Below, piece by piece: positions 1,522 through 12,395 of a stretch of 64,000 bases of DNA; the first letter of the stretch is position 1, and every line of letters starts with the position of its first letter. The notes beneath the pieces are model-generated. The model was given only the letters and a program-made list of their open reading frames with translations. It was not told where the DNA came from and did not search any database. Source of the DNA: a virus (Duplodnaviria; Caudoviricetes). The translations under genes and the position numbers were made by a program. The stretch covers positions 11,910 through 75,909 of the IMG/VR virus record IMGVR_UViG_3300024283_000010, one strand, 5' to 3'.

Positions 1522-1557
1522 TTTTTATTTATATTAGCTGTGCAAAACAGCCTCAGT

Positions 1558-3942
1558 ATGAGAAAATTAGTCCTAATTGCTTTAACTGTTCTTTTCCCAT
1601 TATTTTGTCTATCGCAAGCTATACCCGGCTGTGGGACTTTTACATCGAGTGGCCCGATAACGGCAACTAGTAATTCAACTATTTCGGGTAAATCAATTGA
1701 CCTTGCAAATGCAGCGACAATAGGCATAAACATTCCAAATGGGGTACATGATGTGCATATCACTAAGTGTATTATTAAAAATGGCACGACAGCGAATGGA
1801 CTGATTAAAATCGGGTCGGGCTGCTACAACATAACGATTGATACGTGTTTTTTAGAGGCTGGTTGGAGAGGTATTAATGCGGTAGGTGCAACTAATCAAA
1901 TCCATATTTGGTATAATTATTTTCATAACATTATTGACCCGAATGTGACAGCAACTTCAAGTGATGGTGGGGGGAGTTCGGTTCAACTTAATAATTGCAA
2001 TGGTGTAGGCATTCAAATACTAGATAACAAATCCTATCACGATGTCTCTAGCAGTGGTATAGGAGACCAATATTCAATCTTTCAATGCAATGGTACACCA
2101 GCATCTCCAATACGTTGTTGTCGCAACCAAGCGCTTAATGGAAGCACTAATCCGCCGGGGACGGGGTATGTAGCCGCAGTGGCCGGAGATGTCGGCGGGT
2201 CTTGGCAACGGTGCGATAGCAATGTATTCGTCAATACCGGTAGTGTGCTATGCCAAGTACAGGGCGGTACAAACATAGAGATGTCATACAATACAGGCTA
2301 TCTTGCTCAAACATCATACACATCAGTAGGTATGGCCTATGGTAATTATTCAGGTGCTCCATCTAATAATGTTACTATGGCGTTTAATAACGTTAGGTGT
2401 ATACAAGCATCGGGCGGTGTTTTTAATTACTGGTTTGATTCTTCGAATGTGACAGCTCCGGCAGGATGGGCAACCAATACTACTTCAACATCCCTGAACG
2501 CTTCAATACTTCCAAATCCATTATGGCCTCCATGTAACCCTGTAGTGTTACCACCTAATATCAGCTACACTGGTTCACCATTTACGTTCGTAGTTAGTAC
2601 GGCTATTTCAAGCCTTGTACCGTCAAATTCGGGAGGAAATGTAGTTTCATACTCCGTTAGTCCATCACTTCCTTCGGGCTTAGGAATATCGAGCGTGAAT
2701 GGTATCGTGAGCGGCGTTCCATCGGTTGCAACTGCGCAGGCTACGTACACGGTAAAAGCGGTTAATTCTGCGGGACAAAGCACTTTCCCATTAGTGATAA
2801 CGGTTAATCCTGCACTGGTCAATAAACCAGTTATAAGTTATTCACCAAATAGCGTAGTCGGAACTATTAATAGTGCTATACCGACACTAAATGCTTCCAA
2901 TACGGGGTCGCCAGTTGTTATGTGGGGTATCAGTCCTTCGTTACCCGCAAACTTAACATTCAATTCAGGCACAATTTCAGGCGTTCCTACGGCAGCGCAG
3001 GGCGCGACTACATATACGGTCAGCGCAACAAATTCGGGAGGCGTAGGGACAGCGAATGTGACAATACAAGTTAATCCGATAAAGCCAAGTATTTCCTACA
3101 GTGGCAGTCCTTATTTATTCACTCAAAATTCAGCGATAGTACCCCTTAATCCAACAAATACGGGTGGGCAAATTACATCGTTTTCAGTTAGCCCTGCTTT
3201 ACCAAGCGGCTTATCCCTAAATACTATATCGGGTCAAATAAGTGGCACACCTACGGCTACACAATCAGCGGCTACATATAATATAACAGCCGTAAATGCG
3301 GGTGGAAATTCTATCTTCCCGATTTCGATCCAAATTCAAGCACCTGCTGTTGCAGCACCGATAATTTCCTACTCTCCAAGTTCACAGACAGGGATTATAA
3401 ACGTGGCTATAAACAATATGAACCCTATTAACAGCGGCGGCGCTGCAACGGGGTTTACTATTAGCCCATCTTTACCCACAGGACTTAATTTTAACACGTC
3501 TAATGGCGTTATTAGTGGAACAGCGACAGTTATATCAGGTTCGACAAGTTATACGATTGTAGGGTCTAATACTGGCGGCAGTTCAACGACCCATGTCACA
3601 ATTCAAATTAATCCGATACCTGCACCAAACATAAGCTATACAGTATCATCGGTTTTGTATTTAACCAATCAGGCTATTACCCCCTTGTCGCCCTCAAATA
3701 CGGGCGGAGCAATTAGCGGATATACGACAGATGTATCATTACCTGCCGGACTTACGATAGACGCTACCTCAGGCATAATTTCAGGTGTACCAACGCAGGT
3801 TACAGCACCCATAACGGTTACAATAAAGGCCACAAATAGCACAGGATTTTCAACATTCCCAATTCAGTTTGCCGTTAACCCTCAACCTGTTACGCACTGG
3901 TACTTGATAAATCAAAGCTTTTTTGGCCCTGTAATATATTAA
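1558..3942 (+). CDS. Exported or surface protein: right-handed beta-helix (pectate-lyase-like) domain plus 5 putative Ig (He_PIG-like) repeats
   Basis: Signal-peptide-like MRKLVLIALTVLFPLFCLSQ; Asn/Ile-rich beta-helix-like N-half; five ~86-aa repeats P.ISY...SPSLP.GL....G.ISG.P.....Y...A.N.GG. Confidence 0.75.
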   Translation: MRKLVLIALTVLFPLFCLSQAIPGCGTFTSSGPITATSNSTISGKSIDLANAATIGINIPNGVHDVHITKCIIKNGTTANGLIKIGSGCYNITIDTCFLEAGWRGINAVGATNQIHIWYNYFHNIIDPNVTATSSDGGGSSVQLNNCNGVGIQILDNKSYHDVSSSGIGDQYSIFQCNGTPASPIRCCRNQALNGSTNPPGTGYVAAVAGDVGGSWQRCDSNVFVNTGSVLCQVQGGTNIEMSYNTGYLAQTSYTSVGMAYGNYSGAPSNNVTMAFNNVRCIQASGGVFNYWFDSSNVTAPAGWATNTTSTSLNASILPNPLWPPCNPVVLPPNISYTGSPFTFVVSTAISSLVPSNSGGNVVSYSVSPSLPSGLGISSVNGIVSGVPSVATAQATYTVKAVNSAGQSTFPLVITVNPALVNKPVISYSPNSVVGTINSAIPTLNASNTGSPVVMWGISPSLPANLTFNSGTISGVPTAAQGATTYTVSATNSGGVGTANVTIQVNPIKPSISYSGSPYLFTQNSAIVPLNPTNTGGQITSFSVSPALPSGLSLNTISGQISGTPTATQSAATYNITAVNAGGNSIFPISIQIQAPAVAAPIISYSPSSQTGIINVAINNMNPINSGGAATGFTISPSLPTGLNFNTSNGVISGTATVISGSTSYTIVGSNTGGSSTTHVTIQINPIPAPNISYTVSSVLYLTNQAITPLSPSNTGGAISGYTTDVSLPAGLTIDATSGIISGVPTQVTAPITVTIKATNSTGFSTFPIQFAVNPQPVTHWYLINQSFFGPVIY

Positions 3943-3965
3943 AAAAAGCCCCAATTAAGGGGCTT
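3941..3965 (-). terminator. Rho-independent terminator closing the repeat cassette (possibly bidirectional)
   Basis: AAGCCCC-AATTAA-GGGGCTT hairpin with an A7 run on the plus strand (U7 on the minus transcript). Confidence 0.85.
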
Positions 3966-3973
3966 AATTCTTT

Positions 3974-4331
3974 ACCACACCAAGCCCAACCTGACCTAAA
4001 ATTATATATGCCAAACCGGGTAACATATTACCTTACCGGAAGCCACCATAATTTACCTATGACCATATCAGACCCCACCACATCGTACCAAACCACTGAC
4101 CTCATCCCGCTTCATCAAATATTATCTAACCGCATCTTAATTCACCAAACCTCTGACCAAATCCTGCCTCAACGCGCCTAACCATATCTGACCGCATTAT
4201 ACCTAACCGCTGACCCTGCCACTCCATATACGAACATACCCAACCATAAACGACCAGTCCTTGCCACCGACCCTATCGCATCAGACCATTCCAATACTTA
4301 CCCCATCAGAACTTGCCCTACCTCTGACCCT
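3974..4331 (-). repeat. Non-coding pentamer-phased array (NN-GGY-like pentamers) in 57-nt units; putative guide RNA array
   Basis: Plus strand RCC/ATC-NN period 5; 2-nt phase jumps (TG/CG) at 4060, 4097, 4154, 4211, 4268, 4325; units start 4062 (37 nt), 4099, 4156, 4213, 4270 (57 nt each). Confidence 0.9.
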
Positions 4332-4773
4332 ACTTTCTACTTGATGAAAAGACTTGTTGCAAGTTACTTAATCTGGCAATCAAATCATTATTTTTGCCTA
4401 CTTGTTCAGTAGGAATAGCATTGGTTCTGACATTCAGCATAATATTACGTGCTGTTTTCAATTCCTTTTTAATAGCATCAATAGCTGAATTAAACCCAAA
4501 TTGCACTTGATCTTTTGGTGGCAATAAAGTATAACCATCGCCACGAATATTCCTTAGATAGTACATTTCTTTTTCAAGTAATTCATTTCGTAAATTATCA
4601 ACCATCTGCATGTACTTGAATTGAATGTTTTGATAGTCTTCGACGTATTTCGCTGTGTTATTATAATTACGTATCTGAGGGAATTTTATATTAAAAATAT
4701 CTCTCAGATAGTCGTGAGTGATGAGCTGTCCCGGCTCAAATTCACTCACTATTTTTGCAATAATTTCATCCAT
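4330..4773 (-). CDS. Accessory protein of the pentamer-array cassette (possible winged-helix plus helical C-terminus)
   Basis: 147 aa; LRNIRGDGY resembles a wHTH wing; stop codon abuts the array; start 2 nt after upstream stop. Confidence 0.7.
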   Translation of the reverse strand: MDEIIAKIVSEFEPGQLITHDYLRDIFNIKFPQIRNYNNTAKYVEDYQNIQFKYMQMVDNLRNELLEKEMYYLRNIRGDGYTLLPPKDQVQFGFNSAIDAIKKELKTARNIMLNVRTNAIPTEQVGKNNDLIARLSNLQQVFSSSRK

Positions 4774-4775
4774 GA

Positions 4776-5342
4776 TTAAACTTTTTCTACCGTGAATCTA
4801 CCATAACGTGGCCTGTAGTCGCAGACACCAATATACATTCCGGCATTCTTTACAATTGTGTCTACTTCGGTTTCATTCAGTTTGGCTTCATCCAAAAATA
4901 TAGTGCATGTAAATTCCCATGAATGAAAAATAGGACGACACCTCATCGTTTTTGCCTGACCAACTTTTACAGTTCTCATATCGCAATAACCGGGAACATC
5001 GAATAACTTAGGTGGTGGTACTTTTGAATGCTTAAACTCAAATATGGCATCGTCCGGTACGATTGCAGCTTGTTTCCATAATACCCCTTGTTTAAACTGT
5101 TTGGCAGACGCTAAAAACGTAGCATCAAGAACACTGGATGGCATAATGTATATCCCATCTTCATAATAACAAGACGCCTCAAATTCACAACGGGCGATAG
5201 CCTCTTGATCTTCATCTGTTTTCTGTCTCTTTTTAGTGAGTTCCTTTAATCTTTTAGTAAAAGGATGTAACGGATTAGCGGTTTTGTCGCTGTGCATCAA
5301 TAATGGGGCTGTGCCCTTGATACGATAACTTAAAGTTTTCAT
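4776..5342 (-). CDS. RAMP/Cas7-like single-RRM protein; putative effector of the pentamer guide array
   Basis: 188 aa; N-terminal IKGTAPLLMH strand, YIMPSSVLDATF (compare RAMP IPGSSLKG), C-terminal Gly-loop-like GMYIGVCDYRPRYGRFTV. Confidence 0.7.
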   Translation of the reverse strand: MKTLSYRIKGTAPLLMHSDKTANPLHPFTKRLKELTKKRQKTDEDQEAIARCEFEASCYYEDGIYIMPSSVLDATFLASAKQFKQGVLWKQAAIVPDDAIFEFKHSKVPPPKLFDVPGYCDMRTVKVGQAKTMRCRPIFHSWEFTCTIFLDEAKLNETEVDTIVKNAGMYIGVCDYRPRYGRFTVEKV

Positions 5343-11255: not shown

Positions 11256-12395
11256 TTAAAATAATTCTTGCTTCTTAGCCCCGGCTAATGCCGACAACTC
11301 CACAAGCTCACCGGCACGTTTCATGCCTGATTTCTTTATATTTATCGCTGCGTTGTGATCTCTTGATAAAGACAGCCCACATGCGCATTTATAATGTCTT
11401 TCTGATAATGGCATATCCTTTATGCCACCGCAATTAGAACAAGTCTTAGTACTTGCTTCAAATATGCCTATCTGAATAATATTCTTTCCTCTCCAATCAG
11501 CTTTATATTTAAGCATATTTACGAATGAACTCCAACTTGCTGAACTGATAGCCAATGCCAACTTATGGTTTTTAACCATTCCGCTAATGTTCAAATCTTC
11601 TAGGCAGATAGTATCATAATGATTGGTTATCTCATGCGATACAGTATGTAAGAAATGATAGCGGCTATTATTTATTTTTTCATACAATTTGGATAACTTA
11701 AGAATTGCGTTTTTTCTATTTTTACTGCCTTTTTTCTTTCTGCTCAATCTCCGATGAAGTACTTTTAATCGCTGTAACGATTGCTGAAGATGTTTAGGAT
11801 TTTCTATTTCTATACCATCGGAAAGTACGGCAAACGTTTTTAACCCTAGGTCTAAACCAATTGTAGTATCAATATTAACTGGCTTTTTTGCCACCGGTAA
11901 TGACGAATCGTCAACTATAAGCGAAGCAAAGTATTTATTAGTTTTGGATTTACTAACTACAACATGTCTAATGTCACCTGCTAAATTTCTGTGATTTACT
12001 ATCTTTATTCCCTCTCTGAATTTCTGTATAAAAAGAGTATTACCTTTTATGTTGCAGTTGTATCTTAAGCTAAATGATTGATTGGAATTCTTGTTTTTAA
12101 ATTTTGGGAACTTGCTTCTCCTGGCAAAAAAATTATTAAAGGCCAAATCGAGTGTTGACATAGACGCAGCCAGTGCATCATAACTTACCTCTTTTAACCA
12201 ATCGTGATCCTTTCTTAACTCTGTCATCTGTTTTTGCAGATCGTAGTTTGATAAATTAACGCGGTGGGTTTGGTATGCATATGATTTGGTTTCCAAAGCA
12301 AGATTATAGATAAACCTACAGCAATTCATATGTTTATCCATTAACGCCGTTTGGGCATCCGTAGGGTATAATCTGAATTTAAAAACTTTAATCAT
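11256..12395 (-). CDS. tnpB: IS200/IS605-family TnpB RNA-guided nuclease (solo, no tnpA)
   Basis: N-terminal FKFRLYPT HTH; RuvC GLDLG, CLEDL, RDHNAAINI intact; CSNC..CACG zinc finger. Confidence 0.93.
   Translation of the reverse strand: MIKVFKFRLYPTDAQTALMDKHMNCCRFIYNLALETKSYAYQTHRVNLSNYDLQKQMTELRKDHDWLKEVSYDALAASMSTLDLAFNNFFARRSKFPKFKNKNSNQSFSLRYNCNIKGNTLFIQKFREGIKIVNHRNLAGDIRHVVVSKSKTNKYFASLIVDDSSLPVAKKPVNIDTTIGLDLGLKTFAVLSDGIEIENPKHLQQSLQRLKVLHRRLSRKKKGSKNRKNAILKLSKLYEKINNSRYHFLHTVSHEITNHYDTICLEDLNISGMVKNHKLALAISSASWSSFVNMLKYKADWRGKNIIQIGIFEASTKTCSNCGGIKDMPLSERHYKCACGLSLSRDHNAAINIKKSGMKRAGELVELSALAGAKKQELF

Follow-up and report, generated by a model that had tools for sequence, protein, structure and literature searches.

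The segment between positions 3974 and 4329 of the minus strand of the 64,000-nucleotide stretch of phage DNA analysed here (hereafter the window) is very probably the vrRNA array of a phage-encoded VIPR system, in which the guides carry no tail and one of them, that of unit 2, would be aimed at the catalytic-core motif of IS1-family transposases. VIPR (Viral Interference Programmable Repeat) is an RNA-guided DNA silencing system encoded by phages and first described in 2026 (10.64898/2026.04.26.720920, 10.64898/2026.04.26.720927, 10.64898/2026.10.15.759431). According to these preprints, the RAMP-like Vipr protein forms a polymer along vrRNAs of 9–16 GGY/NN pentamers, holding each GGY and exposing the NN bases, which pair with double-stranded DNA with every third target base skipped, leading to transcriptional silencing (10.64898/2026.04.26.720920 and companions). 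The same preprints report that Vipr forms helical filaments with one protomer per repeat and that disturbing the GGY triplets of SUSP1 abolished silencing, all VIPR experiments so far having been carried out on tail-bearing type II arrays from Proteobacteria phages. VIPR itself is a known system, to which this phage adds a new member whose array layout has been little studied and whose predicted target belongs to a new class. The assignment is carried by the membership of the neighbouring protein in the Vipr family, by the grammar of the array and its distribution in one clade, by the better conservation of dinucleotides over triplets and by one codon-phased natural target.

The record from which the window was taken is a 75.9-kb virus contig of 39% GC that encodes a DnaB-like helicase, a large terminase and a portal protein. 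Immediately upstream of the array, two genes are encoded on the same strand:

4776–5342, minus strand: vipr gene, encoding a 188-amino-acid RAMP-like protein predicted to bind GGY triplets (phrog_4652, E 9e-55)
4330–4773, minus strand: vap1-like accessory gene, encoding a 147-amino-acid protein (phrog_5926, E 1.4e-19)

A BLASTP comparison of the window Vipr with gp096 of Felixounavirus wV8 gave 37% sequence identity (E 8e-45), and the family profile, built on 40 homologues, matched the PDB entry 36pp, "SUSP1 Vipr protein", over residues 1–188 (E 3.6e-60). The residues contacting G1, G2, Y3 and the skipped base, the GGY contacts being known from the P. fulva Vipr (10.64898/2026.04.26.720927), are all kept, namely H17, R136, V173, D175, Y176 and R177 in the P. 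fulva numbering and K33 in that of SUSP1. Among the 40 Vipr homologues, H17, K33 and R136 are invariant, while D175 and R177 are conserved in at least 90%. A gap of 2 nt separates the vap1-like gene from vipr, and the array adjoins the TAG stop codon of the former. The vap1-like product has homologues encoded by the gene after vipr in wV8 (E 6e-9) and in Pseudomonas phage Medea1 (E 2e-18), the pair of genes being also present in Felixounaviruses, Pseudomonas phages and others, and GGT-NN runs adjoin this pair in wV8 and Medea1.

Read on the minus strand, the array is a succession of pentamers made of two variable bases (NN) and a GGY-like triplet, organised as four units of 57 nt followed by a unit of 37 nt and by degenerate units:

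4324–4329, minus strand: first junction motif, GGTCAG, directly 3′ of the upstream stop codon (read from the sequence)
4270–4326, minus strand: unit 1, CA and 11 pentamers, 57 nt (parse)
4213–4269, minus strand: unit 2, CG and 11 pentamers, 57 nt, predicted guide against IS1-family transposases (parse and target match)
4156–4212, minus strand: unit 3, CA and 11 pentamers, 57 nt (parse)
4099–4155, minus strand: unit 4, CA and 11 pentamers, 57 nt (parse)
4062–4098, minus strand: unit 5, CA and 7 pentamers, 37 nt (parse)
4005–4061, minus strand: unit 6, degenerate, CA and 11 pentamers, 6 of them with GGY (parse; added here to the units delimited in the first-pass annotation)
3974–3996, minus strand: short closing run of 5 GGY triplets spaced 2 nt apart (run caller and direct reading; likewise added)
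3946–3965, minus strand: intrinsic terminator hairpin followed by a T run (also seen in the fold of the array)

The first-pass annotation of this DNA had proposed a two-level period, with 5-nt pentamers grouped into 57-nt units, and the minus-strand parse reproduced every one of its figures, including the 37-nt unit at 4062 with its seven pentamers and all the dinucleotides that it listed. The array is framed by the TAG stop (4332–4330) of the upstream gene and by the terminator hairpin. Each of the full units, at 4270, 4213, 4156 and 4099, holds 11 GGY-like triplets, a number inside the published range of 9–16. Their triplets are GGY in 22 of 44 cases and GAT in 9 of 44; that only half of them are canonical counts against the VIPR reading, given the GGY dependence of SUSP1. 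As a minus-strand RNA, the stretch is G/U-rich and C-poor, the plus-strand GC skew falling to -0.71. Autocorrelation, evaluated against 2000 first-order Markov shuffles, was significant at both periods, with a value of 0.485 at lag 57 (z = 7.1; z = 5.3 at lag 114) and z-scores of 3.3 to 3.8 at lags 5, 10, 15 and 20. Lag 55 was depleted (z = -2.8), as a +2 phase slip between units would produce, and the array region gave the strongest lag-5 signal of the 64-kb window. Tandem Repeats Finder did not report the array because its units are too divergent. No Rfam family matched it, its RNA fold had no significant secondary structure (z = -0.44), and at the junctions neither Rfam nor the fold revealed any hairpin, ribozyme or other structured handle. 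A search of the INPHARED phages retrieved no DNA similarity to the array or to 20 kb of the phage. The candidate of a coding or recoded minus-strand ORF was rejected, as all frames contain stops.

Eleven triplets separated by 2-nt spacers also recall the TRAP binding site of the Bacillus trp leader, and a TRAP-like ring-binding RNA was our first idea for this locus, that is, a regulatory RNA whose 11 triplets in each unit would be wrapped on an 11-subunit ring protein. It was dropped given the Vipr homology and the variable unit sizes. Pfam detected no TRAP-like (MtrB) protein among the neighbouring proteins, the neighbouring gene product is a Vipr, a protein that assembles into helical filaments rather than rings, and the number of triplets per unit varies from 10 to 16 in related arrays, which excludes a fixed ring size. 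We thus assign a negligible probability to a TRAP-like function and retain the VIPR reading.

On the other strand, a gene (window 1540–3942, plus strand) encodes an 800-amino-acid protein that has a signal-like segment at its N-terminus and five He_PIG Ig-like repeats. The gene runs towards the array and shares with it the terminator at 3946–3965, which is bidirectional. A similar gene is found at the same place in the relatives L165 and L170.

To place the layout of the array among VIPR systems, GGY runs were called in about 165 Vipr loci collected from IMG/VR, GTDB genomes and assemblies. In 109 Vipr loci, the gaps between repeat tracts are mostly 50–75 nt, corresponding to the published tail-bearing vrRNAs. 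Among the roughly 165 loci, a gap of 4 nt, always in the form GGY-CA-G-N-GGY, was only encountered in the window and in L004/L005, L006, L086 (a Bacteroides MAG), L088 (Parabacteroides) and L168–L170, looser but related forms of the junction being present in L085, L171 and L172. A quick maximum-likelihood tree groups 12 of the 14 loci without tails into a single Bacteroidota-linked Vipr clade (aLRT 85, nested in a clade supported at 96), and the same quick search placed it as sister to a tail-bearing Pseudomonadota clade with the wV8, Medea1 and P. fulva-like proteins. The closest relatives of the window, L004 and L168–L170, have Vipr proteins 76–81% identical to that of the window and no vap gene, their arrays (L004:3561–3960; L168:3083–3340; L169:758–1170; L170:2226–2520) starting directly at the vipr stop codon. 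As in the window, the arrays of L004, L168 and L170 open with a stop codon followed by GGTCAG.

Throughout the clade, the unit length is always 5n+2 nt, with n = 11 in four units (window only), 12 in six, 13 in eight, 14 in one and 15 in two. The units of the relatives thus measure 62, 67, 72 or 77 nt, versus the 57 nt particular to this phage. Since n varies while the remainder does not, the rule is the phase slip of 2 nt and not the length of 57 nt. Of the claims made from the window alone, the slip of exactly 2 nt therefore extends to the whole clade and the role of the junction as the boundary of units is supported by the conservation of GGY-CAG-N in L004, L006, L086, L088 and L168–L170, whereas the exact 57-nt unit stands for the four units of the window and fails as a general rule. 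The base following CA is always G at the clade junctions (GA 14, GT 4, GC 2 and GG 2), so the first "dinucleotide" of a unit is partly junction. The CG of unit 2 is the only non-CA among the 22 clade junctions. At the triplet positions of the clade, the first base is G in 82% of cases, the second G in 77% and the third a pyrimidine (T+C) in 94%, while the NN positions are near-uniform.

Two further loci present particular arrangements. In L147:3088–4036, from a Solirubrobacterales MAG, an Actinomycetota VIPR array uses almost exclusively GGC triplets, in units of 10–13 pentamers that are 16–17 nt apart (ATGGGTTG...), a layout intermediate between the tail-less and the tail-bearing ones. In L085:3554–3678, from a Bacteroidales MAG, two adjacent vrRNA-like units have nearly the same series of dinucleotides (CAT/CTC/CGC pattern), which suggests a recent guide duplication.

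Comparisons between units bear on whether the dinucleotides carry the guide information. Between the units of the window, NN identity is 0.10–0.35, that is at chance level, and triplet identity 0.55–0.73. The order is inverted in the orthologous units of related phages, where NN identity reaches 0.88–1.0 versus 0.61–0.86 for the triplets. These values come from two orthologous guides common to the four phages L004 and L168–L170, none of which shares a guide with the window, so guide turnover is complete at that distance. Three independent samples of this phage carry the same array and the same Vipr protein without any difference, and accordingly give no information on guide turnover. The proposal that the variable dinucleotides act as the guide is thus favoured by the related arrays, where trinucleotides and dinucleotides do not vary equally but with the dinucleotides better kept, and also by the 22/22 target of unit 2 described below.

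Candidate targets were sought by scanning IMG/VR with the central eight dinucleotides of units 1–4, allowing one wildcard base between them, and then scoring the full guides. Unit 2 gave 22 seed matches, of which three extended to 22/22 (L227, L229 and L234) and one to 21/22 (L237). L227 and L229 are the same sequence and L234 is distinct, so that there are two distinct 22/22 sequences, and at the site these two differ only in the skipped bases. The sites are found, in antisense orientation, in ORFs that carry a DDE_Tnp_IS1 domain, on the motif LTMRMQMRRLT just after the region of the catalytic glutamate (LTMRM(Q/H)MRR(F/L)T in its metagenome form), and every base skipped by unit 2 is the third position of a codon. 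Outside the motif, the three target variants have no blastn alignment. The gapped search suggested in the first-pass annotation thus recovered sites for one guide, and its supposition that one base is skipped per dinucleotide, on wobble positions, coincides with the published 1-nt-skip code of VIPR, to which the unit 2 sites conform.

The full 32-nt pattern of unit 2 was also recovered without mismatch from JGI metagenome contigs, more than 120 times among the matches listed, these sites representing at least 104 distinct 32-mers on contigs of 33–64% GC. All of the listed sites are antisense to DDE_Tnp_IS1 ORFs at this motif, and the skipped bases again fall on third codon positions. For the low-GC target copy L289 (site at L289:2580–2611), the nearest named homologues are in Chitinophagaceae and Cytophagales, whose phylum is also that of the nearest cellular Vipr relatives of the phage. 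Many of the target copies listed are located on high-GC contigs, which could not share a host with a phage of 39% GC. Allowing up to 2 mismatches, the pattern was found in none of 401 sampled Bacteroidia genomes, nor was it present in the three genomes carrying related VIPR loci. On the basis of these matches, we predict that the unit 2 guide is aimed at the catalytic-core motif of IS1-family transposases of soil Bacteroidota and other phyla.

We considered whether this match could be coincidental, the real targets of all the units then being competing phages. Only one unit has a match, the IS1 matches are all homologous and hence amount to one event, and the unit 2 guide is internally repetitive. 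Moreover, the other guides of the window do not converge on IS1-bearing contigs, no target of units 1, 3, 4, 5, 6 or of the terminal run having been found in 120 of them. Against a coincidence, a 22-base gapped match in IMG/VR would be expected by chance only about 0.006 times per guide, as estimated from the 8–49 matches obtained per 16-base seed, and the target is codon-phased and occupies the best-conserved motif of a gene carried by mobile elements. In addition, an unrelated VIPR locus, L134, from an Armatimonadota MAG, has a guide of 15 dinucleotides that agrees at 26 of 30 positions with another conserved motif of this transposase family, a proportion that long guides did not reach in a reversed-database control, where they did not exceed about 0.83. 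The region of this guide is L134:100–180 (plus strand; contig WVXJ01000116.1). We therefore regard a coincidence as improbable and favour a transposase-directed guide.

The same match also bears on whether the array is still in use, as it could be read as the decaying, non-functional remnant of a VIPR system. The low proportion of GGY (22/44) and the short or degenerate units 5, 6 and terminal run would fit such a decay. Nevertheless, the array and the Vipr protein are identical in the three independent samples, vipr and vap are intact, and unit 2 has a perfect match to a natural target with only 6 GGY among its 11 triplets. Furthermore, the orthologous units of the relatives keep their dinucleotides while the triplets drift. 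Taken together, these observations make decay a very improbable explanation, and we consider the array as that of a probably functional system.

Searches with the remaining guides were negative. Units 1, 3 and 4 gave 69 seed matches in IMG/VR, none of which rose above 20/22, corresponding to a chance-level extension. Four of the five well-formed units have no identifiable target, which we counted against the best explanation. No target of the window guides was found in 172 Vipr loci under the 1-nt-skip rule. As for the two guides of L004 and L168–L170, a target search returned no match for one and eight homologous matches for the other, at only 18–20 of 26 positions, and one guide of L086 had no target in the 121 genomes of its family. 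The absence of a self-match, initially judged by eye, was confirmed against the whole 75.9-kb genome of the phage, where the best 1-nt-skip match of the guides (14–17 of 20–22 positions) equalled that of shuffled guides. With 0, 1 or 2 skipped bases no self-target was detected, and with 3 skipped bases only the array itself. Published VIPR guides likewise do not target their own genome (10.64898/2026.04.26.720920 and companions).

If this system works like those of SUSP1 and P. fulva, a single minus-strand transcript would cover vipr, vap and the array and end at the hairpin at 3946–3965. Each Vipr protomer would then bind one GGY-like triplet and display the two bases between triplets; the displayed dinucleotides would pair with double-stranded DNA, one target base in three being left out, and transcription would be silenced by the bound complex. 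At the junction, the spacer has 4 nt (CA and G-N) where 2 nt are expected, which shifts the pentamer register by 2 nt. We infer that this shift would interrupt the protein filament and hence delimit one guide of about 11 dinucleotides per unit. The units may be cut apart at the exposed linker, perhaps by cellular RNases.

A different view of the junction is suggested by the sites of unit 2, where the match extends 4 nt in the 5′ direction across the junction, in the 3-nt register. Among the matches listed, the CG of the junction agrees with 92 of 122 sites and the last dinucleotide of unit 1 (AG) with 85 of 122, while the 3′ junction agrees with none of the 122. The extension may be due to chance (about 1/256, noticed post hoc, the sites being homologous). 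Alternatively, the guide of unit 2 may start before the junction, in agreement with "overlapping" vrRNAs, and the junction would perhaps be no strict guide boundary. The system would still be a VIPR but with an uncut array, either one long RNA bearing several filaments as beads on a string or overlapping guides whose pairing crosses the junction. Apart from the extended match itself, the unstructured junctions, with neither handle nor ribozyme nor hairpin, and the exceptional CG of unit 2 speak for it, as does the mention, in the discovery preprint, of staggered arrays with overlapping vrRNAs (10.64898/2026.04.26.720920). On the other side, the four additional matching bases could be fortuitous and, on homologous targets, count as one observation; the match does not continue at the 3′ junction in any of the sites listed; and the +2 slip should break the contacts between protomers, to judge from the structure with one protomer per repeat. 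An uncut array is in our opinion rather unlikely, albeit a serious contender, and we keep the separate guides as the working scheme.

The closest layout in the literature is found in Fig. S18 of the discovery preprint, whose legend describes "staggered vrRNA arrays" as tail-less, with adjacent vrRNAs abutting or overlapping by 1 nt (10.64898/2026.04.26.720920). Judging by this legend, the array of the window, whose units likewise abut without tails, is probably one of these staggered arrays. According to that preprint, small-RNA sequencing confirmed only the ribozyme-interspersed and single-vrRNA architectures, not the staggered one. With the type II VIPR systems of SUSP1 and P. fulva, the window shares a homologous Vipr with the same GGY-contact residues, a vap1-like gene after vipr, a vrRNA of GGY/NN pentamers with about 11–12 per guide, 1-nt-skip targets phased on codon wobble positions, its location on a phage and the absence of self-targeting. 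It differs from them by its 4-nt GGY-CAG-N junction, in place of a structured 3′ tail of about 40 nt per guide (a pseudoknot in the SUSP1 clade), by its more degenerate triplets and by its Bacteroidota-linked lineage, unlike the hosts of SUSP1 and P. fulva. Its predicted target, an IS1-family transposase, also contrasts with the published ones, which are a satellite recombinase, a prophage regulator and another VIPR. Transposases and insertion sequences are not named as targets in the published VIPR papers (10.64898/2026.04.26.720920 and companions). The crRNA and Cas7 backbone of Class 1 CRISPR systems offers a more distant parallel, with a RAMP-fold protein that polymerises on a guide RNA, bases flipped periodically and several guides in one transcript. 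The window nonetheless has no repeat-spacer units, cas genes or adaptation module, and its guide is non-contiguous, with two of five RNA bases pairing and a period of 5 nt versus 6 in Class 1 CRISPR.

The window also contains a 379-amino-acid ORF (11256–12395, minus strand) belonging to the PHROG transposase family phrog_506 (E 4e-111), and the possession of such a transposon-type gene by the phage itself is in keeping with insertion sequences posing a real threat to phages of this kind.

We tentatively propose, as an interpretation that we hold with less than even confidence, that the guides of this clade are delimited solely by the register-breaking 4-nt GGY-CAG-N junction and that VIPR is used against IS1-family elements, an anti-transposon role for which at least two separate origins, here and in L134, would have to be assumed. 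The window provides a clean natural example of a tail-less array, with comparative support at the level of a clade for a second array grammar, and raises the question of how guide length and guide ends are set without a capping pseudoknot. If our proposal is true, the junction would represent a new way to punctuate or mature a multi-guide RNA, and pairing may even cross it. The IS1-family prediction would extend the range of VIPR targets from satellites, prophages and rival VIPRs to insertion sequences, for which a wobble-tolerant code is well suited, as a single guide could cover a whole divergent IS family.
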